The notes: generated from the letters alone by a model not told the origin. A stretch of DNA of 64,000 nt from an uncultured Candidatus Saccharibacteria bacterium (GCA_964450735.1 CAYVDC010000004.1:18829-82828), one strand, 5' to 3'. Shown: positions 8,372 to 59,729, counted from the stretch's first letter. Numbers and translations: made by a program.

Positions 8372-8382
8372 GTAATTAATCT

Positions 8383-8727: not shown

Positions 8728-8734
8728 TACAAAA

Positions 8735-8768
8735 GAAAAAACCTCCATTTGGAGGTTTTTTCTTTTGT
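8735..8768. terminator. bidirectional intrinsic terminator aaaaaacctcca-ttt-ggaggtttttt
   Basis: Perfect GC stem flanked by an A-run and a T-run, between convergent rplT and the giant gene. Confidence 0.7.
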
Positions 8769-8772
8769 ATTA

Positions 8773-31997: not shown

Positions 31998-32183
31998 TTA
32001 CCATGATGACTTGCGTACTCCAGGAATCATTCCTTCGTTTGCAAGTTCACGGAAACAGATTCGGCAAAGGCCGAAATCCCGCATGAATCCTCTACCGCGA
32101 CCACAGCGAAAACAACGATTTTTCGCTCGTGTGGAGAACTTTGGCTTTTTTAACGATCGGGCAACAGTTGATGTTTTTGCCAT
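31998..32183 (-). CDS. rpsZ: 30S ribosomal protein S14 type Z (zinc-binding, 61 aa)
   Basis: [61 protein letters not shown] has the CxxC…CxxC pattern. Only the C-terminal part of listed ORF 31998–32357 is coding. Confidence 0.85.
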
Positions 32184-32524
32184 ACTTAAAAAGCTACTTT
32201 TTTTAATAAATTCATCCTCCAATATCGCGCTTGGGCTCATGAGATGCTTAATTGGGCAAAAACCCTGTAAGCACAATATGAAACCGAACGGATTAAGAAG
32301 ACAAAAGCACCATGACCGGTGCTTTCGACATAATAGCAGAAATGGGTGAAAAGTCAATAATTATTACTGACAACCTTCGATACCAGGATCCATATCTATA
32401 ACGCATGGTGAGCCCCACTCCGTATTTACTACATCCATAAAGTTAGGATTTAAATTAAATTGCTTGGTGTACACTAAAAAAGAAGCTCCAATAAGAACTA
32501 TTTGAATAATGAATAGTTTTTTAA

Positions 32525-33022
32525 TCATATATAAACAACAGGTATATTAAAAAATACAATAATAAGGAATCGCGAAATTATCTGGCATAAAGTAAAAAGT
32601 ATAACAGTTAGAAGCAATTGTTTTTTAAATTTCCCTCTGCGGTATGGAAGATATGTTACCAAGATTGGTAAAATAACGACAAAAATATAACCGGTAGTGA
32701 AAAGCAATATAGTATTTCTTGGTTGAGTTACTATGCTTTCTTGCAGAAGAGCACGTACATTAGGAAGAATAGTCAAAACAATATGAGCAATACTCCCTAC
32801 TACAAGCAACCAAAAAGACCATTTAGCTAGGGTCGCATCACTTGAATCAGAAACTGGAGCCGGGATTGGCGTTGGAATTGAAGCTGATCCAGTAAGAAAA
32901 CTTGCTTCTGTTATCTCCTCATCTTTCCAACCTTGAGCGACCAATGTGGGGCGATAGACGGATTCGGGAATACCTGCTGCTTTTTGTTTTTGTATATATG
33001 AGACCAGATCCTGGTTTAACAT
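32525..33022 (-). CDS. membrane protein: N-terminal 40-aa soluble motif (L..YIQ.Q...G...E.I...L...GW..EEI.E.F) plus 3–4 TM helices; inserted between rplE and rpsZ
   Basis: N-terminal DLVSYIQKQKAAGIPESVYRPTLVAQGWKDEEITEASF, then hydrophobic helices. Paralogous N-terminus to the gene at 49756–50520. Confidence 0.5.
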   Translation of the reverse strand: MLNQDLVSYIQKQKAAGIPESVYRPTLVAQGWKDEEITEASFLTGSASIPTPIPAPVSDSSDATLAKWSFWLLVVGSIAHIVLTILPNVRALLQESIVTQPRNTILLFTTGYIFVVILPILVTYLPYRRGKFKKQLLLTVILFTLCQIISRFLIIVFFNIPVVYI

Positions 33023-33048
33023 ACACAGAGTATATCAGACCGTATAAA

Positions 33049-33080
33049 AGAAAAACACCCAGTAACGGGTGTTTTTCTTT
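33049..33080. terminator. intrinsic terminator aaaaacaccc-agtaac-gggtgttttt
   Basis: Seen directly, immediately after rplE. Confidence 0.7.
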
Positions 33081-33088
33081 TTGAAGTT

Positions 33089-33643
33089 TTATTTAGCAGC
33101 TTCTGCTGACTTGAACGGCACCCCGATCAACTCAAAGAACTTTGTAGCTTCTTTTTTGTTTTTCGCTGATGTGACGATAGTGATCGCCAAACCGAAGATG
33201 TCTTTCAATTCTTCATCTCCAGTCTCAGGAAAGATGCTGTGCTCTTTCACTGGGATAGTGATGTTACCGATGTCGTCTACGATGCGTCGCTCGAGACCGC
33301 GGAAGTCCTTTGTTCGAGGAAGTGCGATGTTGAGGAGCTTGTCGAGGAACGAGTACATGCGAGTATTTCGGAGTGTGACTGCAACGCCGATAGCGTCACC
33401 TGCACGAACCTTGAAGCTCGCAACTGATTTCTTTGCCTTGCGGAGAGTTGGCTTCTGGCCAGTGATCTTCGCGAGACGATCAAGAATGAAGTCGTTACGG
33501 TTCTTGTCTTTCTTGATAGCGCTTCCAGTTCCAACAGATATTACTACCTTCTGGATCTTTGGAGCAGCCATCTTGTTCTTGTAGCCGAACTCGCCTTTCA
33601 TTGATGCGATCGATTCTTCTGCTTTTGCTTTGACTGATTTCAT
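33089..33643 (-). CDS. rplE: 50S ribosomal protein L5
   Basis: L5 motifs …PKIQKVVISVGTG… LRNTRMYSFLDKLLNIALPR…. Confidence 0.9.
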   Translation of the reverse strand: MKSVKAKAEESIASMKGEFGYKNKMAAPKIQKVVISVGTGSAIKKDKNRNDFILDRLAKITGQKPTLRKAKKSVASFKVRAGDAIGVAVTLRNTRMYSFLDKLLNIALPRTKDFRGLERRIVDDIGNITIPVKEHSIFPETGDEELKDIFGLAITIVTSAKNKKEATKFFELIGVPFKSAEAAK

Positions 33644-34858: not shown

Positions 34859-35281
34859 TTATGCTCGGCTTACGATTTTGGTTTTGACCGGGAGTTTTGT
34901 TCCTGCCTTGCGGAGAGCTTCCTTTGCGATGACTGCATCTACGCCGTCAACTTCAAAGATAATGCGTCCTGGGCGAACTTCGAAGCAGTATGAATCTGGA
35001 TCTCCTTTTCCTTTTCCCATACCCACTTCAGCAGCCTTTCGGGTAACTGGTCGGTCAGGGAAAATACGAATCCATACCTTGCCGGCCTTTGTGAGGTGGC
35101 GAGTCATGGCCTTTCGAGCTGATTCAAGCTGAGCTGACGTTACGCGGTGGAGGCCTTCAGATTTGAGTCCGAATCCGCCGAATGCGAGGGTCACGCCACG
35201 AGTATCAGGCTTTGAGAGTTTGGCATCGCTCTTGCGATTCGTCTGCCACTTGCGGTGTTTTACTTTTTTAGGGAGTAACAT
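34859..35281 (-). CDS. rplP: 50S ribosomal protein L16
   Basis: MLLPKKVKHRKWQTNRK…. Confidence 0.9.
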   Translation of the reverse strand: MLLPKKVKHRKWQTNRKSDAKLSKPDTRGVTLAFGGFGLKSEGLHRVTSAQLESARKAMTRHLTKAGKVWIRIFPDRPVTRKAAEVGMGKGKGDPDSYCFEVRPGRIIFEVDGVDAVIAKEALRKAGTKLPVKTKIVSRA

Positions 35282-35293
35282 ATTATTTAACTC

Positions 35294-35974
35294 TTATTGT
35301 TTGCCTCCCGCCTTTGGAGCGTCAGCAAATACTATTCCTCGGTTGATCCAGACCTTGATACCGATGTCGCCGTAAGGCAAGTGTGCTCGCTCTCGAGCGA
35401 AGTCGATGTCCGCTCGGAATGTCTGAAGTGGGATTGATCCACGCTTCAATTCTTCTGAACGTGCGATTTCAGCGCCGCCGAGACGTCCGCCGATAACGAT
35501 ACGTGCTCCTTCTACGCCGCGAACGCCCATGACCTTTTCGATCGTCTGCTTGATGACGCGTCGGTATGGCATGCGCTTTTCGAGACCTTCAGCAACTGCA
35601 AATGCGACCAAGCGTGCGTCTGCATCTGGGTTGGTAACTTCAACGATATCGATCTTGAGTTCTTCAGGCATGCGAAGTTTCTTCGCTGTGATGAACTTAG
35701 TGATATCGTTCTTGAGCTTGAGTGTTCCTTCGCCTGATCGTCCAATCAAAACGCCTGGGCGTGATGTGCGGAAAATAATGCGAGTAGATTTCTGGTTTCG
35801 CTCGATTTCAATCGATGAAACATATGATCCGCGGAGCTTCTTATCCAAATATTCTCGCAAGAGAACGTCTGTTTTCAAATTGTCCTGATACTTCTTGTCG
35901 CCTGCAAACCATCGTGATTTCCAGTCGCGAAGCATAATGAGACGGTGTGCGTATGGGTGAACTATTTTTGACAT
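35294..35974 (-). CDS. rpsC: 30S ribosomal protein S3
   Basis: MSKIVHPYAHRLIMLRDWKSRWFA… with KH domain. Confidence 0.9.
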   Translation of the reverse strand: MSKIVHPYAHRLIMLRDWKSRWFAGDKKYQDNLKTDVLLREYLDKKLRGSYVSSIEIERNQKSTRIIFRTSRPGVLIGRSGEGTLKLKNDITKFITAKKLRMPEELKIDIVEVTNPDADARLVAFAVAEGLEKRMPYRRVIKQTIEKVMGVRGVEGARIVIGGRLGGAEIARSEELKRGSIPLQTFRADIDFARERAHLPYGDIGIKVWINRGIVFADAPKAGGKQ

Positions 35975-35991
35975 ATATATGTGTTAGATAA

Positions 35992-36459
35992 TTACTTTTT
36001 TGTTGCTGTCTTCTTCGCGACCTTTGGTGCAGCTGCTTTCTTGACTGCTACTTTCTTTGCTGGAGCTTTTGCTGCTGATTTCTTAGCAACTACCGGCTTT
36101 GGCAAACCTTTTCGGTGTTTTGGAGCTTTTTCAGTCTTTTCAGCAAGGAGGATCATAACGTGTGATCCGCGCTTGTTGATGCTTGATGCACGTCCGAATG
36201 CGCGTGGCATTGAACGATGCAAGACAATTCCTTTGTCTACACGCATTTCCTTGATAACAAGGTTTTCTGCTGAGAGACCATTCTGGTTGACTGCGTTAGC
36301 TACTGCTGAAGCCAAAAGCTTCTCGAGCGGAGCTGCTGCGCGCTTGACCATGAACTTAAGTTCCATTTCTGCTTCCTTAACGCTTTTGCCAACGAGTGAT
36401 TTTGCAACCAATCGGACTTTACGTGGAGCTTGTCTGTAATTTGAGAGTAATGCTTTCAT
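35992..36459 (-). CDS. rplV: 50S ribosomal protein L22 with a Lys/Ala-rich C-terminal tail
   Basis: MKALLSNYRQAPRKVRLVAKSLVGKSVKEAEMELKF…. Confidence 0.9.
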   Translation of the reverse strand: MKALLSNYRQAPRKVRLVAKSLVGKSVKEAEMELKFMVKRAAAPLEKLLASAVANAVNQNGLSAENLVIKEMRVDKGIVLHRSMPRAFGRASSINKRGSHVMILLAEKTEKAPKHRKGLPKPVVAKKSAAKAPAKKVAVKKAAAPKVAKKTATKK

Positions 36460-36470
36460 AGTATGGACTC

Positions 36471-36815
36471 TTATTTCTTCTTATCAGCTGGAGCGGATTT
36501 TGCTGCCTGAGCTGCTGAGATTTCGGCCTCTTTCTTCTTTTGCTCAAGTTCTTTCTGCATCTTACCTCCGTGTTTGGTAAACTTGCGAGTCAAAGAGAAT
36601 TCTCCGAGTCTGTGTCCGACCATGTCTTCTGTAACTAGAACTTCTACGTGTATCTTGCCGTTGTGAACGCCGAAGATGAATCCCACCATTTCTGGTGCGA
36701 TCTGTGATGCGCGGGACCATGTCTTGATAACGCCAGTCTTTTGTGGCTCTTTGCCAGCAATTTTCTTGAGCAGGCGCTCATCGACATACATTCCCTTTTT
36801 GAGTGATCGTGTCAT
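36471..36815 (-). CDS. rpsS: 30S ribosomal protein S19 with a C-terminal extension
   Basis: [19 protein letters not shown]…[31 protein letters not shown]…. Confidence 0.9.
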
Positions 36816-37084
36816 GTATAGGGTTTCTCGAACGACCTTATAAAATAAGGCTATTCGGTTATTAAAGCAAGGAAAGTAATGGTATTCCTTGCCAAGTTAA
36901 CAATAATAATTTACTAGTTTCAAGCCCGAAATCCGGGTTTGAGACTAATTAAAAGGGCTCTTTCGAGGAGCCGATGGGGTCAGATTAGCAGGAAATGGGC
37001 TGAATGTCAAATATAACCTTGATTTTATTGACGAAAGAGCAGTTTATGGTAAGGTAAGAGGTATTTCCTCATTAAAACCTGAAT

Positions 37085-38623
37085 ATGGAACGATTAAAAA
37101 ACAAAGACCTCATCAAGAAAATTTTTGACAGAGGCATAGTTGGGACCAATTTCCTTAAACCTATCACCTTCAAATCGCGTATCCGTTCATGGATATATTG
37201 CGACTGGCGCAAAGCCTGCGGCCACCCCGATTTGATGGATGATATAAAAGAGGGGCTTGCAGAGATTGTAAGAACCGCTCCTATTACAGCTGATGCAGTA
37301 TTTGGAGTAGCAACCGGTGCTATTCCGCACGCCACGCTTCTTGCGCAGCACTTAAAGCTGCCATTTGGCTATGTGCGCCCTGATGCCAAAGCAAAAAATT
37401 ACGGCTTAGGCAAAAGAGTAGAAGGCACTGATGTAAAAGGCAAAGTAGTATTATTGGTAGAAGACTTAAACTCAACAGCAACCAGCATGATAGAAAATGC
37501 TGCTATCTTAAAAGAAGAAGGCGCTGCCGAAGTTATTCTGTTATCAATATTTACTTACAACCTGGCAGAAGCAAATGCAAATATTGAGAATTCCGGCTTA
37601 CGGTACTACTCATTACTGAGCATTAATGACTTATTGCCGTACTTGAAGGAACAATTGGATGTAGATCAATTTGTATCTGCAACTGATTGGATACAAGACC
37701 CACGCGCATGGTTTGATAAATACAAAACCACATTCAATTTTGGTTTTCTAACCACACTTCGTAAATCGGCAAAACAAGCCGGTAACATTGCGTGCATGGG
37801 CCTTGATCCTGTGCTGGAATCACTACCAAATGAATTCAGCTCGCAAGGGGTTCGGGGCATATACAGCTTTTACAAAGTTTTGTTTGAGGCAATGCGCACT
37901 GCAAATCTTTCGCCGGCGATGTTTAAGCCTAATGAAGGATTTTTCTCTTCACTCAATAATGGCTTCGAAGGAAGCTTTGTGGGAGACGAAACTTTGAGCA
38001 AGGTTAATGCGTTGGTAAGAGATATTTTCTTTGGCATTCCTCTTAATATAGATGCAAAGAGAGGCGACATTGGAAAATCATCAGATAATTACGCTAAAGA
38101 GTATTACTGTGGTTGGAAAACTGAAGCCATGACTATTCATACTTACATGGGCAAAGATTCAGTTATGCCTTTTGTTAAATACTGTTCAGCCGAAAAATGC
38201 TGCGGAGTATACGCATTAGACAGAACATCGAACCCCGGCGGTAATGATTTTCAAACACTGCTTATCGGCAATGAACCGCTTCATAGTATTGTTGGCGGAA
38301 AAATTATCGAATGGGGCACGGGCGCTTATGGTTTGGGAGCAGTAGTAGGAGCAACATCTATCGAAGAACTTTCTTTTTTAGCTAAAAAGTTTGCAGGTAA
38401 AGATGTTCCATTACTTGTTCCTGGCGTTGGCGATCAAGGCGGTAAAGCGCCTGATGTGATGCATGCGTTACATATGGCGAAGTACGAAATAGAGTTGGCG
38501 CGCATTAACAGCTCGTCAAAACTAACACACCCTTGGGGAACAAACGAGGCACCGAGTAACTGGCTTGAACTTTGTTTAAACAATATTAAACAGTTATGCC
38601 ACGAAACAAACATTGCGGCATAA
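37085..38623 (+). CDS. pyrEF: bifunctional orotate phosphoribosyltransferase / OMP decarboxylase (pyrE–pyrF fusion, type-2 OMPDC)
   Basis: N-terminal half has the PRTase type I PRPP loop VVLLVEDLNSTATSMIENAA and the OPRT flexible loop. C-terminal half has CMGLDP, NIDAKRGDIGKSSDNYAKEY and LLVPGVGDQGG, the three type-2 OMP decarboxylase signatures. Confidence 0.75.
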   Translation: MERLKNKDLIKKIFDRGIVGTNFLKPITFKSRIRSWIYCDWRKACGHPDLMDDIKEGLAEIVRTAPITADAVFGVATGAIPHATLLAQHLKLPFGYVRPDAKAKNYGLGKRVEGTDVKGKVVLLVEDLNSTATSMIENAAILKEEGAAEVILLSIFTYNLAEANANIENSGLRYYSLLSINDLLPYLKEQLDVDQFVSATDWIQDPRAWFDKYKTTFNFGFLTTLRKSAKQAGNIACMGLDPVLESLPNEFSSQGVRGIYSFYKVLFEAMRTANLSPAMFKPNEGFFSSLNNGFEGSFVGDETLSKVNALVRDIFFGIPLNIDAKRGDIGKSSDNYAKEYYCGWKTEAMTIHTYMGKDSVMPFVKYCSAEKCCGVYALDRTSNPGGNDFQTLLIGNEPLHSIVGGKIIEWGTGAYGLGAVVGATSIEELSFLAKKFAGKDVPLLVPGVGDQGGKAPDVMHALHMAKYEIELARINSSSKLTHPWGTNEAPSNWLELCLNNIKQLCHETNIAA

Positions 38624-38649
38624 ATAATGCCAAGATTAATTAAAAGAAC

Positions 38650-38686
38650 AGCGGGTCGAGATTAAAATCTCTTCCCGCTTTTTTAG
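38650..38686 (+). terminator. intrinsic terminator agcggg…cccgct + tttttt
   Basis: Seen directly after pyrEF. Confidence 0.55.
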
Positions 38687-38739
38687 TTGCCTTATTTCCC
38701 TTTTTATGGGATAAATGGCCAAACAAACGTACTCTACAC

Positions 38740-39738
38740 ATGAGAAAAATAACCTTTACCTACGGTGGCTTCAATAATGCCTTCCGTGTCATGCCAGGAG
38801 CTGGCATTGCAAAAACCATTGAGGATGTAAAAGCCTTGCTCAAAAACAAGGACATCACCATCATCGTATTTGGCTCTATTACAGTTTTGGGACGCAACGG
38901 AAACGACGGCAACCAAATGTACATAGATCCCAAAGGCGAGTTTACTGTTAACTCAGTTGGTATGACCAACCTCGGCAAAGAAAAGTACAAAACAGTACTC
39001 AGAGAAATTGTTGAGCTTGTTCACGAAGCTGGTAAAAAACTTGTGGTAAGCATCGCTGCTGTACAGTCATACAAAGAATACTCTGAACTGCTTCAGTTCT
39101 GCATCGAGTGCGGCGCAGACGGCGTTGAACTAAACTTCGGCTGTCCTAACGTTGTTGACGGTGGTACAAGTCACGCAATACCAAGCTTTGATCCGGAAAA
39201 CCTTCGCATTACGCTTGAGTACATTGAAAATGAGTTTGGCGGCACAGTGCCTATACCAGTATGGGTGAAAATTTCACCGCTCATACATGAACACACGATG
39301 GTTCGAACCGTCGCTTCTAGTAAACCTATCGAATACACATTTGCGCTTAACAAAGACTTGGCGAAAAAAGTTTGCGATGTACTGAACGGATTCAATTTCA
39401 TAAAAGCAGTAGTATGTTGCAACACTATCGGCAATGTATGCGCGCTTGATGAAACTGGAAAACCGATGATTGGGCCGAACAGCAACAATCCCAAAAATAC
39501 CGGCGGACTTTCAGGAAAAGCAGTGCATGCGATAAGTGTACGGCAAACCATGTTTTTTAGAGCAAACTTGAAACCAACCATTGATATTATTGGTGCAGGC
39601 GGCAATGAGACAGGCGAAGACATGGACGACTTTATTAGAGCAGGAGCTGCTGGAATTCAGGTAGTTTCTCCATACTATCGGAACAAAGATCCCTTCGTAT
39701 TCAGCAATATTGCATCTTTATACGTCTTACTTGATTAA
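38740..39738 (+). CDS. pyrD: dihydroorotate dehydrogenase, class 1 (catalytic Cys)
   Basis: LNFGCPNV (N.SCPN with Cys), GGLSGKAV, IIGAGGNETGEDMDDFIRAGAAGIQV match DHODH motifs. No pyrK nearby. Confidence 0.8.
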   Translation: MRKITFTYGGFNNAFRVMPGAGIAKTIEDVKALLKNKDITIIVFGSITVLGRNGNDGNQMYIDPKGEFTVNSVGMTNLGKEKYKTVLREIVELVHEAGKKLVVSIAAVQSYKEYSELLQFCIECGADGVELNFGCPNVVDGGTSHAIPSFDPENLRITLEYIENEFGGTVPIPVWVKISPLIHEHTMVRTVASSKPIEYTFALNKDLAKKVCDVLNGFNFIKAVVCCNTIGNVCALDETGKPMIGPNSNNPKNTGGLSGKAVHAISVRQTMFFRANLKPTIDIIGAGGNETGEDMDDFIRAGAAGIQVVSPYYRNKDPFVFSNIASLYVLLD

Positions 39739-39762
39739 CGAACTACTTACGTACGATATATT

Positions 39763-39792
39763 CGGCCTTCGGAAACGAAGGCCTTTTTTATT
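39763..39792 (+). terminator. intrinsic terminator ggccttcg-gaaa-cgaaggcc + tttttt
   Basis: Seen directly after pyrD. Confidence 0.7.
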
Positions 39793-39843
39793 GTCTTTTT
39801 TGATTTCCATGGTAATGTGTGAGCAACTAAATTCCATTAAAAC

Positions 39844-41070
39844 ATGAAACTGAACAACAACCAGCTGAAAAAAGTATTGGCATTTTTGCACAATATGGGC
39901 CTTACTGATGTAACCGAAGAAGACATACTACAAATAGTAGAGAATGACTTCGACGGCCATGCCCATGCACGCAAAGGCGCACAGACCAAAATCATCATTC
40001 CGCAAATGAAACAAGTTTCTGTTGCAGCATTTTATATGCCTAATGCAACCGTCAATGAAATTGGCGATAATGAAATCGGAATTACCTCCTACGAAAAATT
40101 GATGTGGTACCGCAATCATATTTTAGAAGAATGCGGCCCAAATTTTTTACCGCTCTTTTCTTTATACCTTTCAGAAAAACTTTCCGTGGCTGACATTGAA
40201 CGGGCATGGAAAGAAAAGCTGATTTCCGGTATCAAGTATTATCCAAAGGGTGCGACCACAGGCAGTGAAGGCGGCTCAAGCGGCTTTGCAAAACTGCGTG
40301 CACAATTGGAATGCATGAACGATCTTAAAATTACTTTTAACATGCATGGTGAAATACCCACTATCGACGGCATCAACCCCGTACCTGGCGGAGAACGCGA
40401 ACCTTTATTCTACCGAACCGAAGGTGAGGAATTACTGCAATGGTACACAGGACCAATTGTTGCTGAACATATCACAACATGGGAAGGCGTTGAGTTTACG
40501 AAGCGGTATGACAATGTAGTAGCTACGCTCACACCTCAACATTGCTTGCTTAGCAATATGGCAATCTTTCATAAAGTAAAAGCAAACAACGATTGGTATA
40601 ACTACGCCATAAAAATGGGTCTGTGCCCTAGCATGATATGCGCGCCAGTCCTAAAAGAACAAACGCAAGTTGCCGCCATATGGCAAGCACTTATTTGGCA
40701 GTATCGCCAAAAAAAGAAAAAGTTCTTCAAAGGTACTGACACTGCACATCACCCACCGCACGGAAAATACAAAGAAGAATGCGACTGCGGCGTGTACAAC
40801 TCACCGATACAGATGGAAATGTATTACATGCTGTTTAAATACCTCGACACATATTCGTGCAAAGGTATTATGGACGACTTTCAACGGTTTATGAGCGATA
40901 TTGGTATGGAGTTTTATGGGATTACCGGCAAGGTAACAAACAAAACCATAGCTATTGTACGTACGCCAAACAAAATCGAAGCCGAATACGGCGGAGCAGT
41001 GCCACCATTTGCTGGTGAAACGCTTCCTTGGAAGGCAATCGATATAACTGCCGCCTTGGCAGACGAATAA
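39844..41070 (+). CDS. pyrC: dihydroorotase, class II-like (amidohydrolase superfamily)
   Basis: DGHAHAR metal motif. IKYYPKGATTGSEGG resembles E. coli PyrC KLYPANATTNSSHG. GTDTAHHPPHGK resembles the LGTDSAPH… motif. Confidence 0.7.
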   Translation: MKLNNNQLKKVLAFLHNMGLTDVTEEDILQIVENDFDGHAHARKGAQTKIIIPQMKQVSVAAFYMPNATVNEIGDNEIGITSYEKLMWYRNHILEECGPNFLPLFSLYLSEKLSVADIERAWKEKLISGIKYYPKGATTGSEGGSSGFAKLRAQLECMNDLKITFNMHGEIPTIDGINPVPGGEREPLFYRTEGEELLQWYTGPIVAEHITTWEGVEFTKRYDNVVATLTPQHCLLSNMAIFHKVKANNDWYNYAIKMGLCPSMICAPVLKEQTQVAAIWQALIWQYRQKKKKFFKGTDTAHHPPHGKYKEECDCGVYNSPIQMEMYYMLFKYLDTYSCKGIMDDFQRFMSDIGMEFYGITGKVTNKTIAIVRTPNKIEAEYGGAVPPFAGETLPWKAIDITAALADE

Positions 41071-41094
41071 TTACAACACTAAAAAAACCTATGT

Positions 41095-41125
41095 CCCCGT
41101 TTCGAAAGAGACGGGGCTTTTTGTA
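41095..41125 (+). terminator. intrinsic terminator ccccgt…acgggg + cttttt
   Basis: Seen directly after pyrC. Confidence 0.6.
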
Positions 41126-41155
41126 CCAAAGCGTTTTTTCGTATATAGTGGAGCT

Positions 41156-41956
41156 ATGAAGATCGGCATATTTGATTCAGGCCTCGGAGGACTTTTCATC
41201 ATGAAAAGCATTGTTTCGAGCTTGCCACAATATGACTATATCTACCTCGGAGACACCTTACGCCTTCCCTACGGAGATCGCGACCAGGCCACCATCCAGA
41301 CGTTTCTTCGAAACGGAGTGGACTATCTGTTTAAACAAGGCTGCGTGCTCATCATAGTTGCCTGTAACACCGCCTCAGCAGAAGCTCTGCGTCAGATACA
41401 GCAAACATATCTCCCCGAATGCTATCCCGATCGCCGCGTACTCGGCGTGATCATCCCTGCAATCGAAGAAGCTATGCGCGGCGACCGAGTCGGCGTCCTT
41501 GGGACCATGGCCACAGTGAAGTCTCGTACCTACGAAAAAGAATTCAAAAAAAAGAGCAGCCATATTCGCGTCTTTCAACAAGCAGCGCCGCTTCTCGTTC
41601 CCATGATTGAAAACGGCGAATGGAACCTCATCGAGCCCGTACTGCGCGAATACTTGCAGCCGCTTTTGGAAAAAGATATCGACACACTCGTCCTCGGCTG
41701 TACGCACTACCCTATTTTGAAAAAAGAAATCCGCAATATCATCGGACCGGAGGTCCATCTCGTCTGTCAGGATGAATTCATCGACAAGAAACTTGAGGAC
41801 TACCTCAAACGTCATCCTGAGATCAGCGACAGACTTTCCTCAAACGGAACACGTGAATTTACAATTACAAAAACTAGCGAGCATTTTGAAAAGCTCGCCA
41901 AAGAATGGTTCAACAAAGACATCGAACTAAAAGTTATTGAGATTCCGGAGATCTAG
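41156..41956 (+). CDS. murI: glutamate racemase
   Basis: IGIFDSGLGGL, IVACNTAS, LGCTHYP match MurI motifs. Confidence 0.85.
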   Translation: MKIGIFDSGLGGLFIMKSIVSSLPQYDYIYLGDTLRLPYGDRDQATIQTFLRNGVDYLFKQGCVLIIVACNTASAEALRQIQQTYLPECYPDRRVLGVIIPAIEEAMRGDRVGVLGTMATVKSRTYEKEFKKKSSHIRVFQQAAPLLVPMIENGEWNLIEPVLREYLQPLLEKDIDTLVLGCTHYPILKKEIRNIIGPEVHLVCQDEFIDKKLEDYLKRHPEISDRLSSNGTREFTITKTSEHFEKLAKEWFNKDIELKVIEIPEI

Positions 41957-41972
41957 AAAATAAAATTACATC

Positions 41973-43136
41973 CTACTTTTCCACCTGCGCTTCATCGATA
42001 ATTCTTGAAGCCTCGCGCCCAAACGTAGTGACAATCTCTCGACAAGCGGCAACAAATTCCTTGTCTTCGAATAAACTCGTATCGATCTCCTGAGAACTGT
42101 CATTTTGACGATCATATTCTCCAAGAAAAGCTCCGTATGTTGAAAAAAGGTTTTCAATCTCTGCATTCATTTTTCCATACAGGTCAGCAAGCTTGGACTC
42201 CGACTGGGTCATTTTGATCTTTTGATCCTGTTTAAGCTTGGCGAACAAACCGCCAACGAACAGTTGAGACTCAGCAATAAGTCGAAACGTACTTTTGCCA
42301 CTGAATTCAGTGGGCCGTATTTCAAGACGGCAAATATTACGCGCCTGTTTCTTCATTTTCCTCGATTTCTGAGTACGCCCTGACTTTATGAGAACCGAGT
42401 TTGCTGTTTTGCGTTTTTTTATGCGATCAGCTGTGACAAATGCGTAGGTTAAAATATCGGTCACGCGTTGCACGTGGTTGCGTGTTTCCGAATCTTCAAA
42501 TGTTAATCCTTCTGGAACACCAAAATTAAGATGAAGGGAAAGTGAGCCAGGTATGATTTCTCTTTCTCCTGAAACAGGATTGTCTTGTGTCGGCAATATA
42601 TCAAGCATGCCAAGTTCTTGGAGGACTCGCGCCTGTGGTCCGGGACTATAAGAAAAGTTCGGATTAACTTCAAAAAGCATTTCTGATTCCTGATCAGTAT
42701 GTACGTCGAGAAGATCGAAAGTTTTTTTGTAATCAAGCAATTCTTCAGTTTCGGGTATTTCAACTTCGATGCCGATTGTAGGCAACGGATTGGTTTTGCT
42801 CATATACTTCTCTTCTTTCTCTGAGTAGTATCTCATCTCCGCATATTCATTCGCCAGATCCGTATCAGTGGCATGCGGATTCTGCTTAAGAAATGTAAAA
42901 AGATGCAACCGCGCCATAGGCATGACAGTCGGTTCAAGCTCTCTGAACATTCTGGTGAAATCGATTACTCGCTTGGCTAGACCTGAATATTCTTTTGATT
43001 TTGGGCTTTCGTTCGTTATCTCAGGCTCAAAGAGGCCTTCTTCTGGAGGTAAATCAAATCCATCATCGATGCCTTCATACGATTCTTCAGGTATTTGGGT
43101 TTTGGGCCTAGGGGCACCAATAAATCTCTCTTGCAT
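41973..43136 (-). CDS. hypothetical protein; weak resemblance to GCS2/YbdK-type carboxylate-amine ligases (amidoligase fold)
   Basis: TIGIEVEIPE (G.E.E), SLHLNFGVPEG (H.H), ICRLEIRPTEF (E.R) occur in the order seen in glutamine-synthetase-like GCS2 enzymes. Length 387 aa is close to YbdK. Low certainty. Confidence 0.35.
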   Translation of the reverse strand: MQERFIGAPRPKTQIPEESYEGIDDGFDLPPEEGLFEPEITNESPKSKEYSGLAKRVIDFTRMFRELEPTVMPMARLHLFTFLKQNPHATDTDLANEYAEMRYYSEKEEKYMSKTNPLPTIGIEVEIPETEELLDYKKTFDLLDVHTDQESEMLFEVNPNFSYSPGPQARVLQELGMLDILPTQDNPVSGEREIIPGSLSLHLNFGVPEGLTFEDSETRNHVQRVTDILTYAFVTADRIKKRKTANSVLIKSGRTQKSRKMKKQARNICRLEIRPTEFSGKSTFRLIAESQLFVGGLFAKLKQDQKIKMTQSESKLADLYGKMNAEIENLFSTYGAFLGEYDRQNDSSQEIDTSLFEDKEFVAACREIVTTFGREASRIIDEAQVEK

Positions 43137-43138
43137 AA

Positions 43139-43540
43139 TTATGAATGGAAATAGGAAATAAGCTTTGGGATGAAAATAATGCAGCCGATCACGATTGCCG
43201 CGATAGCTGAGAGTAACACTGCGCCAGCTGCGACGTCTTTGGTATCACGAGCGAATGGATGTTCCTCTGGACTGGTAAGATCAATATCAAATTCAATTGC
43301 GGTATTGAATGCTTCCGCGAGAATGACGATTGAAATAGCAAGCACGATTGCGAGCCACTCGCTTTGGGTTATCCGAAAAAAGAAACCGAGAAACACGGCA
43401 ACTGCCCCAGCTAGCAAATGGAGCCACATATTGTGCTGAGTTTTTAGTAATACAAAGATACCGCGTAGCGCATATTGGAAGCTCTTGCCTCGCTTTACCA
43501 CGCTGAATGCTTCAAGTTCTTTGGCTGGTTCATCAAACAT
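43139..43540 (-). CDS. dgkA: prokaryotic diacylglycerol kinase / undecaprenol kinase family (DgkA)
   Basis: Three TM helices and signature LAEAFNTAIEFDID (A.E..N.AIE…D). Confidence 0.7.
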   Translation of the reverse strand: MFDEPAKELEAFSVVKRGKSFQYALRGIFVLLKTQHNMWLHLLAGAVAVFLGFFFRITQSEWLAIVLAISIVILAEAFNTAIEFDIDLTSPEEHPFARDTKDVAAGAVLLSAIAAIVIGCIIFIPKLISYFHS

Positions 43541-43612
43541 AGGGTAAGTATAGCAGAGTATGCGAAAGGGGGAAATTGATACCTTAGATCTCTTTGGTGT
43601 ACAATTTTGAGT

Positions 43613-43650
43613 AGAAAAAATGCCCCGCGTGTAGGCAGGGCATTTAAATA
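43613..43650 (-). terminator. intrinsic terminator aaatgccc…gggcattt + T-run on the minus strand
   Basis: Seen directly downstream of the 43665–44135 gene. Confidence 0.6.
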
Positions 43651-43664
43651 AAAATCTTATACGA

Positions 43665-44135
43665 TTAGGATGTTTTTTGTGATGGATGATGTAGGTATCT
43701 CAGAAGTTTTTGCTCAAATGCGCTAAATTTCTGTGTTTTTTTCTTAGCTGCTTTTCTAGGCTTATTGTGCATAATTTGAACAATCATGTATATGGTATAT
43801 ATAAATATCAGTGCGCCGATAATAGACGCCCATGATAAATAAGGAACCCATTCAACACGGTACATTAGAATCAAGCATGCCGGAATAGTTGTGAGCGTAA
43901 GCATGCTCGCAACAAAAGCAGAAACCTCCTGATCAAGGAATATCCGAGCAAGATTGTACACGCAAACACACATACCAAACGATAATCCGAGTAAAACAAA
44001 AAAACCTTCAATACCCTGCAAGTAACGGGGGTACTGAAAGAGCGTGTACTCATCGAGCGGCAGCAATCTGCCTGCAAAGAAATTCATGCAAAAAGTAATA
44101 CCAAGAGCGGCGGAGAGGGTAACGGTTTTCTTCAT
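43665..44135 (-). CDS. hypothetical polytopic membrane protein (156 aa)
   Basis: Four hydrophobic helices. Own promoter (TTCAAA-N16-TACAAT at 44168–44194 on minus) and own terminator. Confidence 0.45.
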   Translation of the reverse strand: MKKTVTLSAALGITFCMNFFAGRLLPLDEYTLFQYPRYLQGIEGFFVLLGLSFGMCVCVYNLARIFLDQEVSAFVASMLTLTTIPACLILMYRVEWVPYLSWASIIGALIFIYTIYMIVQIMHNKPRKAAKKKTQKFSAFEQKLLRYLHHPSQKTS

Positions 44136-44167
44136 AAGTGTTTTTTCTTTTAAAGTGTGTACGAATG

Positions 44168-44194
44168 ATTGTAACTAGAGTACACCTGATTTGA
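44168..44194 (-). promoter_or_regulatory. sigma70-like promoter TTCAAA-N16-TACAAT for the 43665–44135 gene
   Basis: Seen directly, about 35 nt upstream of the ATG. Confidence 0.3.
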
Positions 44195-44312
44195 ACAAAA
44201 GTCGAGAGCTAAAATTTCTACTACAATCGTAACTAATGTTACATAAACATTTGTTACTGAGTGGCTGCACGCGCCTGATCGCTGAGTTTTAAAAGTATCA
44301 CGCGGCGCGCGG

Positions 44313-44360
44313 TGATGCCCCTTCCGGGGCATCAAAAAACCACGCTTGCAGGCGTGGTTG
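44313..44360 (-). terminator. rplB terminator: aaccacgc-ctgcaa-gcgtggtt + tttttt, followed by a second hairpin gatgcccc-ggaa-ggggcatc
   Basis: Seen directly downstream of rplB on the minus strand. Confidence 0.65.
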
Positions 44361-44389
44361 ATTGAAAATTTCTCTCTTTGTTTGTGTGA

Positions 44390-45238
44390 TTAAGATTCCT
44401 TTCGCTTCTTGCCAGTGACGCGGCGTGAGACGATGAATGGGTTTGAGTATTTCTTTGGAGTACGAGTCTTTCGTCCACCAGTAACTTTACCCCACATTGT
44501 CTTCGGTCGTCGCAATCCACGGCCTTGTCGTCCTTCACCTCCACCGTATGGGTGGTCAACAGGGTTCATAACCGAACCACGAACAGTTGGGCGAATACCC
44601 TTCCATCGTGAGCGTCCAGCTTTACCGTAGTTTCGAAGTTTGTTCTCGTCGTTTGATACTTCACCGATTGTAGCCCAGCAAAGCTCAGAAACTTTTCGAA
44701 CTTCAGATGATGGCATCTTCAAGTTTGTATATCCATCAGCGTTCGCGACAACTTGTACGAATGTTCCAGCGCCACGTGAGAGTTTTGCTCCACCGTTTTG
44801 CTTGAGTTCGACGTTGTAGACAAACATACCGACTGGGATGTACTTGAGCGGAAGTCGGTTTCCCGGCTTGAGAGCTGCCTTTTCAGAAACGATGAATTCG
44901 TCTCCGACGCGAGTCGTCTTTGAGGCGATCACGTAGCGCTTCTCTCCGTCAGCATACACTGCGAGAGCAATGAAGGCTGTTCGGTTTGGATCGTATTCAA
45001 CAGAAGCGATCTTGGCTGGGATTTCTTTCTTGTTGTACAAGAAATCGATCTCGCGGTAGACACGCTTGTTACCACCTCCCTTGTGTCGAGTAGTGATACG
45101 GCCCTGGTTGTTGCGTCCAACTGAACGCTTGGTTCCCTTGGTGAGAGCCTTTTCAACTTTGTGGCCGGAAAGCTTTTCCTTGTAGTTAACTGTCTGAAGC
45201 TGGCGTCGTGACGCGCTTGTAGGTTTATAGGTTTTCAT
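44390..45238 (-). CDS. rplB: 50S ribosomal protein L2
   Basis: …SVMNPVDHPYGGGEGR… L2 signature. Confidence 0.9.
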   Translation of the reverse strand: MKTYKPTSASRRQLQTVNYKEKLSGHKVEKALTKGTKRSVGRNNQGRITTRHKGGGNKRVYREIDFLYNKKEIPAKIASVEYDPNRTAFIALAVYADGEKRYVIASKTTRVGDEFIVSEKAALKPGNRLPLKYIPVGMFVYNVELKQNGGAKLSRGAGTFVQVVANADGYTNLKMPSSEVRKVSELCWATIGEVSNDENKLRNYGKAGRSRWKGIRPTVRGSVMNPVDHPYGGGEGRQGRGLRRPKTMWGKVTGGRKTRTPKKYSNPFIVSRRVTGKKRKES

Positions 45239-48631: not shown

Positions 48632-48842
48632 AAGCTTTTTTCTTCGATTCCTGGGTGAAGGAGAGATGACGAGAACGCGTATCTTTCCCAAACCTATGAA
48701 TCAATAAAGAACAAATACTAGTTATTAATTGGCTGGATTGACTGTCCAGACCATGTTTATTTACTTTTGTCAAATTTGGCAAAAATAAAAACGCCCCGAA
48801 GGAGCGATCAGAGATAGAATACCCTATCTGGCCTTATAAGTC

Positions 48843-48880
48843 AAGAAAAATAGCCCCTTCAGTAATCTGGGGGGGCTATT
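48843..48880 (-). terminator. minus-strand intrinsic terminator tagcccc…ggggcta + ttttt
   Basis: Seen directly. Terminates an about 245-nt ORF-free transcribed stretch (48881–49126). Confidence 0.5.
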
Positions 48881-49126
48881 AAGTGCAAATTTTGCTTAAA
48901 TTGTAGTTAAAAGTGGAAGTTTTAGTAAAAAAACCTTATTTTAAGGGGTTTTTAGGTTGCCATGACCACGGCCTCCCCTGTCATCTTTGGGGATTTCTGT
49001 GTACCTGCCACGCTTCCTTTTGGTGTCTACAAATTCCCGTGAGCCGAATTCAAGATGGGAATTCTTCTTGGTGGATTTTTTCTTTGTTGCCATTGAGTCA
49101 AATTTTAGAATGATTGGGTGAAAAAA

Positions 49127-49600
49127 TTAAGGTTTTTTATATACAACAAGCAGAATGGAAACTACGGTACCGATAATACCTACCATATTTATCCATGTCA
49201 GGGTCTCAAGCCTCTCAAATAGAGGCGCAGCAAGCCGATTGACGGCAGGAACTCCAGCCATGACTACTGCCATGCAAATGATAGCGCTGACATTCGACGG
49301 ATCGCTAATTTGAGCAAAGGTGATCATACCGCTTACATTGAGAAATGCAGCAAGTGCAACAAGCGCCAGAGCAAATCCTACTGGCAGCGCACTGGTTTGG
49401 TATGACAAATCTTGTTTAGGGGAAAAAGCAAAAACCAATGCAGCAGCAACCAGAAACCCAATGCCAAGAAAAAGAAGAATCCATGCAAGCGGCAGTCCGG
49501 CTTTGCGGGAAAGAAATGGCCACAGAGCCCAGACAAACAAAGTAAATACTGTTCGGAAGATTATTTTTGTTTCCATAGTTAACAGGGATTGGGTTTTCAA
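49127..49600 (-). CDS. hypothetical polytopic membrane protein (157 aa; alternative start METKIIF at 49576)
   Basis: Four or five hydrophobic helices. Inserted between fusA and tuf. Confidence 0.45.
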   Translation of the reverse strand: MKTQSLLTMETKIIFRTVFTLFVWALWPFLSRKAGLPLAWILLFLGIGFLVAAALVFAFSPKQDLSYQTSALPVGFALALVALAAFLNVSGMITFAQISDPSNVSAIICMAVVMAGVPAVNRLAAPLFERLETLTWINMVGIIGTVVSILLVVYKKP

Positions 49601-49649
49601 ATTTGTTTCTTATGTGTATATAACCATGTGCGGTTTGTAAATGCAATAC

Positions 49650-49746
49650 AAAAGCCGGGCGCGCTTGATTTACCGATAGGTAAATCACTTCGAGCAGCGT
49701 GATAGTGCAAATCCTGTCACCACGCGAGAAGCAGCGCCCGGCTTTT
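49650..49746 (-). other. 97-nt structured element: 13-bp perfect GC-rich closing stem (aaaagccgggcgc / gcgcccggctttt) enclosing internal hairpins (e.g. gatttacc-gata-ggtaaatc)
   Basis: Seen directly between the two membrane-protein genes. T-run follows on the minus strand. Confidence 0.45.
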
Positions 49747-49755
49747 GATCTATAT

Positions 49756-50520
49756 CTAATTCACCTGCATATTCATCTGATACTGCTGATTCTGAAAATT
49801 CGGCTGTTCATTCATTACTTGTGTAGAAGGGAAAAACAATTTTAGTATCCCTACCCCTGCCATTGCTCCAATAACTGCAAACACAGCAAATATCGCAATA
49901 CCAAATACCAGCCAGAGACCAAACACTGCAAGTGTTTTGAGCACTGTAACAGAATAGTAATACCAGAATATCGCCAAGTTGAAGACAAGTCCGAGAATAG
50001 GAACAAGAAACGGCGGCATACCTGCGTATGCTAAAAGTACCAACACAAACGTAACCGCAAAGCTCAACCCTCCATAAAAGAGTGCCTTGCTAAATGTGCT
50101 TCCAGGAATTTTTAAAAGCTTTGTAATCAAATACAGCACGATTGCACCGATCAGTCCTGACACGAATGTAATTGCAGCGCTCAAGCCGATAAACGATGGT
50201 ACTGCAAATGTTCCTGACACCAGCGCGAGATAGCCAATGTTCAGCAGGCATCCTGCTAAGTACATTACCGCTCCGATCGCAAGAGTCGGATTTTTTGCTG
50301 CGTGCATGAATTCAGATTCGCGAGTCGGCGCGTAGACCGACTGTGCTTGCATCTGCTGATTGTATTGTGGCGGTGGCACTGGATTTTCTAATTCATAAAA
50401 TCCTTCGCTGATCTCTTCGATCGGCCATCCGTGCGACTGGAGTGCGTAAATAATTTCTTCGCGACGCAGCCCTCTTTGTTGTTGTGTCTGAATGAAATTC
50501 AGCAGTTCTGGTTTTGCCAT
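49756..50520 (-). CDS. membrane protein with the same N-terminal 40-aa motif as 32525–33022, plus 6 TM helices and a Gln/Asn-rich C-terminus
   Basis: N-terminal ELLNFIQTQQQRGLRREEIIYALQSHGWPIEEISEGF aligns with the 32525–33022 product. Confidence 0.5.
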   Translation of the reverse strand: MAKPELLNFIQTQQQRGLRREEIIYALQSHGWPIEEISEGFYELENPVPPPQYNQQMQAQSVYAPTRESEFMHAAKNPTLAIGAVMYLAGCLLNIGYLALVSGTFAVPSFIGLSAAITFVSGLIGAIVLYLITKLLKIPGSTFSKALFYGGLSFAVTFVLVLLAYAGMPPFLVPILGLVFNLAIFWYYYSVTVLKTLAVFGLWLVFGIAIFAVFAVIGAMAGVGILKLFFPSTQVMNEQPNFQNQQYQMNMQVN

Positions 50521-50565
50521 ACGTACAGTATAAAATAATGTTGCTAATGTGTGAACTATACAAAA

Positions 50566-50596
50566 TAAAAACCCAAGCCGAAGCCCGAGTTTTTAT
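50566..50596 (-). terminator. terminator after fusA (aactcgggc-ttcg-gcttgggtt, with G·U pairs, then ttttt)
   Basis: Seen directly. Confidence 0.45.
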
Positions 50597-50604
50597 TTCG
50601 AATA

Positions 50605-52764: not shown

Positions 52765-52898
52765 ATTATTACTAAGTTCGTTGCTGATAAATAAAAATGA
52801 CCGCTAGGTCTTTTATGCCAAGACTATAGCACAGAATGGGAAATTTACAAATCAACGGTAAGCCCTCTAAGTTAGAGCTTAAAAGGCCTCAAGAGTGT

Positions 52899-54389: not shown

Positions 54390-54394
54390 ATAAA

Positions 54395-54425
54395 CAAAAA
54401 ACCTCCAACAAGTGGAGGTTTTTCT
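54395..54425. terminator. intrinsic terminator aaaaaacctcca-acaag-tggaggttttt (same family as the rplT terminator)
   Basis: Seen directly, immediately after rpsG. Confidence 0.65.
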
Positions 54426-54438
54426 AAGATTGAGGTTA

Positions 54439-59700: not shown

Positions 59701-59729
59701 TATTTTTTCATATAAGAAAAGTATCCCAT
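56709..59729 (-). CDS. large secreted protein (1006 aa): signal peptide, PG_binding_1 domain, two arrays of Kelch/beta-propeller-like repeats, C-terminal beta-sandwich
   Basis: N-terminal KKYIVGLLLAIAFLGSVSFAHA. …IQKIQEYLISTGLLSGEATGYYGNGTKGAIIRFQ… is PG-binding. Repeats …WSS.DGINWTQ…KLWV.GG… and …FWEYNPATNTW.QKADFGG…GFS.G.KGY.GTG…. Confidence 0.75.
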   Translation of the reverse strand: MGYFSYMKKYIVGLLLAIAFLGSVSFAHASPLDDLWNEVLSLRQQVVELRTELGAVVNRATAVSANKVDPATYSTMTEAQASVKVIPAGTLPVTTLNSAVLNGRTELPAVSTTSIVPTATVQAVSPITISRTLNFGETSTDIQKIQEYLISTGLLSGEATGYYGNGTKGAIIRFQQQNGISGDGMNIGPKTQEALARLNGGSIPAQGPTGGAAGIQEKIFLLAGDNNYNSISSSGTSQAFKDVWSSGDGINWTQIQAAAQWGNRTKQQAVYFNNKLWVIGGKDHPQQGYNYKNDVWSSVDGVTWTQVTANAPWSARGDHSVVVYQNKLWVMGGYNTNNQPTITATYYNDVWSSPDGINWTNVTAKAPWKERAGASTFVFDNKMWVVSGFSCTGIGPTWQGGCMSMQVDDAWYSTNGSTWTQAASGVPLLARSKAGTAVFNGKIYMSGGFGSGGNSQDVIVSSDGAHWSRVTTTSGWGLRSAHQMVVYAGKLWIVGGFAGFSAASDEWVTSDGINWTQAASSVPWTGRIYHSVIVKPVTIIMPPPVNPPGPVVINTIPRAPSVCALSIWTQKANFPGTERYGAVGFSIDDKLYVGTGEAYGTFMKDFWEYNPATNTWTQKADFPRTSRFSFGFSIGNKGYVGTGQESASGGSKKDFWEYDPATNTWTQKADFGGLERVSGVGFSVGTKGYAGTGLGNSGQSRDFWEYNPATNTWAQKANFGGTVRYEATGFSIGSKGYIGSGLSVSNSTKDFWEYNPATNTWSQKADIGGVARAGAGGFSLGGQGYIGGGNTISNTFLADFWEYNPATNTWSQKADIGGPERYMPVALATSTKGYMMTGYNGYHNNINVNLKDTWEYCSPSASIPASAAKPDLIVDSFTWAPQLPRVTAINPLTAPTPNPNPNFQFTITVKNISTVAAAVLPQGTQFSVSSSGVSYGARQLLTPVTLQPGQTYVMTVYQNSVPNILATARTIDLTATVDDFGPYAFRMVDESNETNNTMGKSFTVLP

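Follow-up and report, generated by a model that had tools for sequence, protein, structure and literature searches.

We examined a 64-kb stretch of DNA (hereafter the window), part of a contig ≥108 kb long, from an ultrasmall Candidate Phyla Radiation (CPR) bacterium that we place with the Paceibacteria and describe as Nomurabacteria-like, in agreement with an earlier reading of the sequence alone (the original prediction) that had suspected a CPR host. The minus strand of the window carries a translation gene cluster in the order rpsL, rpsG, fusA, tuf, rpsJ, rplC, rplD, rplW and rplB, followed by rpsS to rpsE and secY. The adjacency of rplB and rpsS, encoding ribosomal proteins L2 and S19, is a textbook invariant of prokaryotic gene order, and CPR phylogenomics and binning are built on blocks of ribosomal protein (r-protein) genes. 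Within the window, these two genes are separated by 7,574 bp that hold seven intact open reading frames (ORFs), some of them on the opposite strand, which bears out the gap of about 7.6 kb and the gene positions that the original prediction had described. Reading from rplB to rpsS, this slot contains a gene for a transmembrane (TM) protein, dgkA, a gene for a 387-aa protein, murI, pyrC, pyrD and a pyrE-pyrF fusion (pyrEF) (Table 1). The canonical S10-operon arrangement, in which rplB and rpsS are adjacent and co-transcribed, does not hold here, given the gap, the opposite-strand genes, and a predicted terminator and promoter that would uncouple the two genes.

Table 1. Features of the rplB-rpsS slot and of the other unit boundaries in the window
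Feature	Position	Strand	Evidence and remarks
rpsS (S19)	36471-36815	-	TIGR01050, 116 bits; opens the downstream unit rpsS-rplV-rpsC-rplP-rpmC-rpsQ-rplN-rplX-rplE
Structured leader of rpsS	36816-36975	-	about 160 nt
Leader hairpin H1	36972-36956	-	GGCTC-CTCGAAA-GAGCC plus U-run
Predicted sigma-70-type promoter of the rpsS...rplE unit	37010-36982	-	TTGACA (37010-37005), 17 nt, TAATCT (36987-36982)
pyrE-pyrF fusion	37085-38623 (37085-38684 with terminator)	+	Pribosyltran and OMPdecase both above Pfam cut-off; TIGR02127 pyrF_sub2, 133.6 bits (cut-off 110.6)
Terminator-like hairpin and T-run after pyrEF	38650-38684	+	spotted by eye
pyrD	38740-39738 (to 39783 with terminator)	+	DHO_dh, 114 bits
Terminator-like hairpin and T-run after pyrD	39764-39783	+	
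pyrC	39844-41070 (to 41116 with terminator)	+	TIGR00856, 171 bits (under cut-off 293); no Pfam match; divergent E. coli-type dihydroorotase
Terminator-like hairpin and T-run after pyrC	41095-41116	+	
murI (glutamate racemase)	41156-41956	+	TIGR00067, 200 bits (cut-off 146.65); Cys motifs ACNTAS and GCTHYP in the translation
387-aa protein gene	41973-43136	-	no Pfam or NCBIfam match; rare family; single-gene addition
dgkA (prokaryotic diacylglycerol/undecaprenol kinase family)	43139-43540	-	PF01219 DAGK_prokar, 116 bits
Terminator-like hairpin and T-run after the TM protein gene	43645-43618	-	
156-aa membrane protein gene	43665-44135	-	about 4 TM helices by eye; no significant family
Promoter-like site of the TM protein gene	44195-44168	-	
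Terminator-like hairpin and T-run after rplB	44338-44359	-	8 bp, 5 GC; 30 nt past the rplB stop
rplB (L2)	44390-45238	-	TIGR01171, 363 bits; Pfam L2_N and L2_C; closes the upstream unit tuf-rpsJ-rplC-rplD-rplW-rplB
rplE-rpsN interval	32187-33088		between rplE (33089-33643) and rpsN (about 31998-32183); holds a 165-aa membrane protein (32525-33022)
Promoter and hairpin design before rpsN	about 32357-32306	-	extended -10 promoter TTGACT-16-TATTAT (32357-32330); hairpin AGCACC/GGTGCT plus U-run (32323-32306)
fusA-tuf interval	48692-50604		1,913 bp; two membrane-protein ORFs (49127-49600 and 49756-50520)
Promoter and hairpin design before tuf	about 48844-48792	-	hairpin at about 48792-48806
rpsG-fusA interval	52765-54438		1,674 bp; 589-aa ORF without a Pfam match

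Profile searches with the seven proteins supported six of the seven gene assignments in the original prediction; the seventh, a GCS2/YbdK label for the 387-aa protein, failed at the level of family and stands only at the level of fold (discussed below). In the PyrE-PyrF fusion, orotate phosphoribosyltransferase (OPRT) is N-terminal and a type-2 orotidine monophosphate decarboxylase (ODCase) is C-terminal, and the fusion belongs to a family of about 40 clusters whose named members are Patescibacteria. The best solved relatives of PyrD in the PDB are all dihydroorotate dehydrogenases (DHODHs) of the fumarate-type class 1A. The catalytic Cys of its ‘NFGCPNV’ motif is retained, ‘eln..cpnv’ aligns with L. 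lactis DHODA, and PyrD has the attributes of this class, namely a Cys base, no PyrK partner (no pyrK adjoins) and no N-terminal membrane domain. Homologs of PyrD at ≥40% identity amount to only 4 cluster representatives among 1.8 billion, and the top homologs with names (P0145, P0150 and P0151) carry the JGI label ‘dihydroorotate dehydrogenase (fumarate)’. PyrC matches E. coli-type dihydroorotases (E 1e-30) with its HxH, Lys, HGE, EHITT and GTD.A.H ligand motifs aligned, and its nearest homologs (50-55% identity) adjoin pyrD on other CPR-type contigs. The equivalog scores of PyrC and PyrE lie under the NCBIfam cut-offs and their active-site motifs are retained; from such motifs, all four pyr enzymes of the window look active. 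MurI combines an equivalog-level profile match with both catalytic Cys motifs. As had been predicted, the membrane protein gene has a promoter-like site and a terminator-like hairpin of its own. The further proposal that each opposite-strand gene is followed by its own terminator appears sound for pyrEF, pyrD and pyrC; murI has none, and 16 nt separate it from the convergent gene for the 387-aa protein.

We next looked at the spacing of the cluster in relatives. A scan with L2 gave 80 loci from metagenome-assembled genomes (MAGs) of Paceibacteria/Nomurabacteria type, with L2 71-95% identical to that of the window (individual loci are given L numbers below), and 19 consecutive junctions were measured with one pipeline. 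The gene order rpsJ...rplB-rpsS...rpsQ was retained in the window and in all loci. The rplB-rpsS junction, measurable in 63 loci, had a median length of 572 bp (range 71-7,635 bp) and exceeded 300 bp in 47/63 loci and 1 kb in 19/63, and in 8 further loci rpsS and the genes after it were not found in the 10 kb downstream of rplB. A second wide junction lay between rplE and rpsN (median 904 bp, range 138-4,230 bp). The other 17 r-protein junctions had medians of ≤90 bp and were almost never longer than 300 bp. Upstream, fusA and tuf were a median of 1,436 bp apart, and rpsG and fusA a median of 120 bp, with more than 1 kb in 9/38 loci. What the original prediction had taken for disruption of a universal adjacency is therefore a junction that stands open across the lineage. 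The order rpsJ-rplC-rplD-rplW-rplB-rpsS-rplV-rpsC-rplP-rpmC-rpsQ-rplN-rplX-rplE-rpsN-rpsH is identical to that of the canonical S10-spc cluster of E. coli and B. subtilis, but the boundaries differ. In E. coli K-12 the rplB-rpsS and rplE-rpsN junctions measure 16 bp and 14 bp, and the sole sizeable gap (164 bp) is the S10/spc boundary between rpsQ and rplN, a junction that is tight in the lineage of the window (median 1.5 bp). The boundaries of this lineage fall instead at rplB-rpsS and rplE-rpsN, each with a predicted terminator and promoter and with hundreds to >10,000 bp of variable cargo.

The window is also split at the other three boundaries. Its rplE-rpsN interval, the second split among the r-protein genes, holds a membrane protein, and 18 of the related loci have type IV pilin-like (N_methyl) proteins there; membrane-protein ORFs and a long ORF occupy fusA-tuf and rpsG-fusA, respectively (Table 1). 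The TTG start listed for tuf (48691) is probably too far upstream, as the conserved N-terminus MAEEF... begins from an ATG near 48631, as in relatives.

Comparative evidence suggests that transcription would end after rplB and restart before rpsS. The terminator proposed after rplB in the original prediction has a counterpart in most relatives: a hairpin with a T-run ≤70 nt from the rplB stop was present in 50/80 loci (62%), compared with 36% after rplE and 0-2% after rplW, rpsS, rpsC, rplN and rpsH. The same prediction had called for a promoter of rpsS between 36816 and 37084, and conservation across loci supports such a re-initiation site. When the four closest sequences (the window, L082, L002 and L003) were aligned upstream of rpsS, TTGACA was invariant and was followed after 17 nt by TAATCT or TACTAT, and an equivalent site is predicted in nearly all 64 loci. 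A best match to TTGAC[AT]-16-TAnTAT at ≥10/12 positions was found in 45/64 loci on the rpsS strand vs 1/64 on the opposite strand.

Immediately downstream of this putative promoter, 6-12 nt past the -10 box, nearly every locus has the motif (A/G)GCTC-loop-GAGC(T/C) followed by a U-run. This hairpin, H1, is conserved lineage-wide: 89% of cells were paired over 61 loci vs 23-61% in slid controls, and its closing pair covaries, being AU in 43 loci and GC in 10 (our alignment of the rpsS 5′ hairpin, A4, takes in 59 related loci). In the window H1 opens a longer leader with a minimum free energy of -48.7 vs -29.4 for shuffles (z -5.4). Three further leader hairpins (36816-36955, minus strand) are specific to the subclade of the window and show a few compensatory changes by RNAalifold; one of them has the conserved loop ACCAUUAC on a covarying stem. 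An nhmmer search with the 4-sequence leader alignment restricted the long leader to the window, L082, L002 and L003. Even a permissive Rfam search gave no match at the rpsS leader, and gathering cut-offs on the whole window returned tmRNA only. An equivalent promoter and hairpin design is found in the window before rpsN and tuf (Table 1). In all, three translation-gene units have a strong predicted promoter with a short GC-containing hairpin and U-run that begin no more than about 10 nt beyond it.

This promoter-proximal hairpin could be an attenuator, a 5′ stabilizer or a protein-binding site. The leader of the E. coli S10 operon contains an attenuator controlled by L4, and the two elements are alike in placing a promoter-proximal hairpin and U-run in the leader of an r-protein operon. 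The element described here differs in starting only a few nt from the predicted 5′ end, in having 5-6 bp only, and in preceding rpsS (also rpsN and tuf), and it has no sequence or Rfam similarity to the S10 attenuator.

We then compared what the slot holds in relatives, again reading from rplB to rpsS. L082, whose L2 is 98.9% identical to that of the window, has a 135-aa ORF, dgkA, an 825-aa MurL_N, MurL_epimerase and Mur_ligase fusion, a 193-aa ORF and pyrEF (86% identical), and lacks pyrD, pyrC, murI and the gene for the 387-aa protein. In L002 (L2 95%) the slot holds two small ORFs, dgkA, murI, a 503-aa Amidohydro_1 dihydroorotase, a 364-aa PyrD, a separate PyrF and a 358-aa PyrE-like protein. 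L003 (L2 92%) has dgkA, murI, pyrF and a pyrE-like gene, and L012 (L2 77%) has dgkA, murI, pyrF, pyrE, pyrC and pyrD. The most widely shared cargo is dgkA, which is present in the slot of L082, L002, L003, L005, L012, L052 and L078; MurI of the window shares 90% of its amino acids with its same-slot counterpart in L002 and 74% with that in L003. For PyrD and PyrC, the identity between the window and the L002 and L012 versions is only 25-28%. The same functions recur in the same slot as non-orthologous or analogous forms. DNA homology breaks at the edges of genes or terminators: with L002 the breaks fall at 37078 and 41134, with L082 at 38688 and 43156. The position of the TM protein is variable as well: unrelated small ORFs stand there in L082 and L002, and DNA homology with relatives is gone over 43553-44370. 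The 193-aa ORF of L082 and the TM proteins had no match in Pfam, NCBIfam, PADLOC or PHROGs. Elsewhere among the relatives, slot cargo includes proC-proB-proA, HicA, two AbiEii toxins, a ResIII helicase and large Zn-ribbon proteins, and 146/218 gap ORFs are singletons. In its fixed place between core genes, its differing content among close relatives and its load of toxin-antitoxin genes, abortive-infection genes and metabolic modules, the slot resembles integration hotspots and flexible islets. It differs from these in lying inside an r-protein cluster and in that, within the window’s subclade, function is kept and the gene version is replaced.

One such swap may be in D-glutamate supply. D-Glutamate for the stem peptide of peptidoglycan is provided by MurI or, in Xanthomonas, by the MurD2/MurL route. 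The window has MurI, and L082 has at the same position (7878-10355 of that locus) the 825-aa protein, a putative MurL-MurD fusion with matches to MurL_N, MurL_epimerase_C and Mur_ligase_M and a weak match to Mur_ligase_C. Both predicted activities would thus be joined in one protein, as they are not in Xanthomonas, and the swap lies between genomes with L2 98.9% identical.

We also considered whether a foreign pyr/murI block was recently inserted, as a one-off genomic island, into a canonical S10 operon. No DNA homology links the pyrEF-pyrD-pyrC segment to its L002 counterpart, its proteins are only 25-34% identical to the L002 and L012 versions, and every pyr gene appears to have its own terminator, all of which would fit such an event. 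The original prediction, which treated the insertion as peculiar to this genome, had itself named a shared block at the same place in related genomes as the sign that the block was ancestral, and that is what we found: L082, L002, L003, L005 and L012 carry dgkA, murI and/or pyr genes there, with pyrEF, murI and dgkA among the genes shared with the window. The junction is, moreover, open in essentially all relatives. The marks of a mobile island were likewise missing, with no integrase or transposase among the seven proteins, no tRNA, and only short repeats at chance level. A horizontal origin, for which the original prediction had proposed composition and codon usage as tests, received no foreign signal, since GC, GC3 and codon usage of the block all lie inside the host range. 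The nearest homologs are on CPR-type contigs: the window-type pyr genes belong to families found there, and relatives of PyrC and PyrD occur in non-ribosomal contexts. Together these observations make a one-off insertion very unlikely. We also asked whether window-type pyrD and pyrC always travel together and rejected this, as PyrC is 53-55% identical to its counterparts in L092 and L094 and the adjoining PyrD had no BLASTP match to the window’s PyrD at E ≤1e-3. L094, a JGI 3300048588 contig, holds window-type pyrD-pyrC, a purC/purE fusion, pyrE and pyrF. Short fragments (CTP synthase, ABC transporter) make up many of the gene calls on this contig, which suggests a lineage with an alternative genetic code or poor assembly.

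One further feature bears on how cargo might be exchanged. Positions 34971-36524 of the window, which run from the 3′ part of rpsS through rplV and rpsC and take in most of rplP, are 100% identical over 1,554 bp to about 9960-11513 of L002, and the flanks are 8-13% divergent. Identical runs between the window and L002 otherwise reach no more than 55 bp, and no other pair has one longer than 167 bp. Recent homologous recombination beside the slot or chimeric assembly would each account for this tract, which, if real, supports an exchange with its anchors in conserved r-protein genes. The source is a metagenome contig, and a tract identical to another MAG inside divergent flanks could reflect strain mixing, so we asked whether the whole architecture might be an artefact of assembly or binning, with unrelated DNA bridging two halves of the r-protein cluster in a chimeric contig. 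Positions 36762-41731, which cover the rpsS-pyrEF junction, recur at 100% identity in an independent Logan assembly (L001), and misassembly on the rpsS side is therefore unlikely. Four independently assembled relatives, furthermore, share the same architecture with homologous dgkA, murI, pyrEF and leader. We regard an artefact as highly improbable, more so even than a single insertion.

Taken together, these results make it likely that the rplB-rpsS junction is an operon boundary relocated throughout the lineage and used as a flexible slot, in which cargo ancestral to the subclade has been replaced in place. In this account, the translation cluster of the Nomurabacteria-like Paceibacteria would have kept its gene order and shifted its unit boundaries to rplB-rpsS, rplE-rpsN, fusA-tuf and often rpsG-fusA. 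At rplB-rpsS, the boundary would consist of an intrinsic terminator behind rplB and, ahead of rpsS, a strong sigma-70 promoter of the extended -10 type that leads straight into a conserved 5′ hairpin and U-run, and interruption at such a place would carry no polarity cost, so that the junction could become a flexible slot whose cargo varies even among near-identical relatives. Ancestrally, the slot of the subclade would have combined dgkA with late pyrimidine genes and a gene for D-glutamate supply (murI or a MurL plus MurD-type fusion). This cargo would then have been swapped, as cassettes of a gene plus its terminator, for non-orthologous versions from other CPR, most likely by homologous recombination anchored in the conserved flanking r-protein genes. 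More speculatively, MurI, DgkA and uridine monophosphate (UMP) may all feed the supply of peptidoglycan precursors.

Several points weigh against this interpretation. The ancestral state of the slot is drawn from few relatives and from a neighbor-joining tree of 4 proteins in which L002 is not placed, and the comparison covers 80 loci that are all rather closely related (L2 ≥71% identical). The terminator, promoter and 5′ hairpin are predictions from sequence, and the 1,554-bp identical tract could have arisen by chimeric assembly rather than recombination. As for the pyrimidine genes, pyrB and carAB may lie elsewhere in the genome and may complete the pathway.

Between them, the four pyr enzymes account for steps 3-6 of UMP synthesis, from carbamoyl-aspartate by way of dihydroorotate, orotate and orotidine monophosphate to UMP, with catalytic residues present. 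The last two steps are carried on one polypeptide, as in UMP synthase (UMPS) of animals, which has the domain order OPRT then ODCase. The window’s fusion has this order too, but its ODCase half is a bacterial type-2 PyrF (TIGR02127), unlike that of eukaryotic UMPS, and it differs from the bacterial bifunctional PyrF/PyrE (NF004034, with F then E order), against which it scores 122 bits with a cut-off of 656. The original prediction had called pyr genes unexpected in a CPR host. We found pyrC/D/E/F between fusA and tuf in about 20 relatives, forming in a larger sister clade a co-directional pyrC-pyrD-pyrE-pyrF, and families of these genes on other CPR-type contigs, as described above.

The observation that pyrB and carAB are not in the window was upheld: neither was among its large ORFs, the ten largest ORFs beyond the r-protein cluster included neither carB nor pyrG, and no pyrB or carAB stood beside pyr genes in any fetched locus. 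A tblastn search with an approximate E. coli PyrB probe, run without a positive control, found no pyrB in the window and 97 loci (1.5 Mb, including about 20 pyr clusters). pyrE and pyrF are the most widely kept pyr genes, and several close relatives have only these two. From the missing pyrB and carAB in the fetched loci and the wide retention of pyrE and pyrF, it appears likeliest that the pyr genes serve to make UMP from scavenged orotate, dihydroorotate or carbamoyl-aspartate. A soluble class-1A-type DHODH would suit an organism without a quinone chain.

The alternative is that the organism is pyrimidine-autonomous, with pyrB and carAB elsewhere completing the de novo pathway. In favour of this, PyrC is chiefly an enzyme of de novo synthesis, each of the four pyr enzymes looks intact, some CPR contigs with the window’s pyrEF family also hold purine genes, and the window covers 64 kb of the larger contig. 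Speaking against autonomy are the lack of an ATCase-like sequence in the PyrB search just described, with its approximate and uncontrolled probe, the close relatives that hold just pyrE and pyrF, and a survey of freshwater CPR in which the full UMP route was found only in Microgenomatia and no complete pathway was detected for Paceibacteria (PMC9166423). On balance, a complete pathway is possible but doubtful, and scavenging of an intermediate remains our preferred explanation.

The 387-aa protein stands apart from the rest of the cargo. Its family is rare, with 10 homologs in 5.8 billion clusters, and its gene is absent from L082 and L002. It had no match in Pfam, NCBIfam, PADLOC or PHROGs, and none of the 10 family members matched Pfam or NCBIfam even at E up to 10; the family profile searched against PDB sequences gave noise only (saposin, E about 0.3). 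The protein nevertheless has the carboxylate-amine ligase fold of the glutamine synthetase (GS), GCL and PafA type, at TM-scores of about 0.3, and the invariant Glu-x-Glu, Glu, His and Arg-x-Glu of the family would fit the active site of such a ligase. It thus shares its fold with YbdK/GCS2, PafA/Dop and the glutamine synthetase superfamily, without a sequence-profile match to GCS2 or any other model, and ‘GCS2-like’ is correct for it as a fold and incorrect as a family. A functional tie of the gene to murI found no support, as the homolog P0002, the sole context looked up, adjoins TGT genes in a locus without murI.

Outside the translation cluster, the window encodes several large surface or interaction proteins of the kind that typically equips epibionts: a protein of 1,913 aa that combines Big_5, filamin and PG_binding_1 domains (8773-14514), a 1,006-aa Kelch-repeat protein with PG_binding_1 (56709-59729), a 660-aa PG_binding_1 protein (62003-63985) and a 914-aa TraG/TrwB-like coupling-protein ATPase (19751-22495). 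It also encodes, on the minus strand, a tmRNA (2951-3340; Rfam 115 bits) with the ARAGORN tag peptide AQTSNAKTAFTKSPYFAFGDFAPALA.

In the literature on pyrimidine or orotate metabolism in CPR, and on the S10 operon or gene order in Patescibacteria, we found no description of this operon split, only general remarks on incomplete nucleotide synthesis. A whole CPR lineage appears to have moved its r-protein boundaries to rplB-rpsS and rplE-rpsN and turned them into fast-evolving slots, and the operon architecture of these reduced genomes would therefore not be frozen. These slots are defined positions at which lineage-specific metabolic add-ons can be sought, and recombination or chimerism is possible within the marker-gene blocks that are used for phylogeny and binning. 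The recurrence of pyrC-D-E-F without pyrB suggests that these epibionts import a pyrimidine intermediate (orotate, dihydroorotate or carbamoyl-aspartate), and not nucleotides alone. The 387-aa GS-fold protein may represent a new family of enzymes, and the 5′ hairpin motif may be a new regulatory element.

A broader proposal, which we put forward tentatively and think less likely to be right than wrong, is that the Paceibacteria translation cluster acts as a recombination scaffold, with its few fixed boundaries as exchange slots, the near-invariant r-protein genes beside them as homology arms, and the promoter, hairpin and U-run as a lineage-specific control element of the r-protein units that result. 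If this were true, DNA taken up from other CPR could swap whole cassettes of a gene and its terminator (late pyrimidine, proline, alternative D-glutamate routes, toxin-antitoxin) across divergent lineages, each slot would retain its function while its gene version was replaced, and the 1,554-bp identical tract would mark a recent instance of the process.

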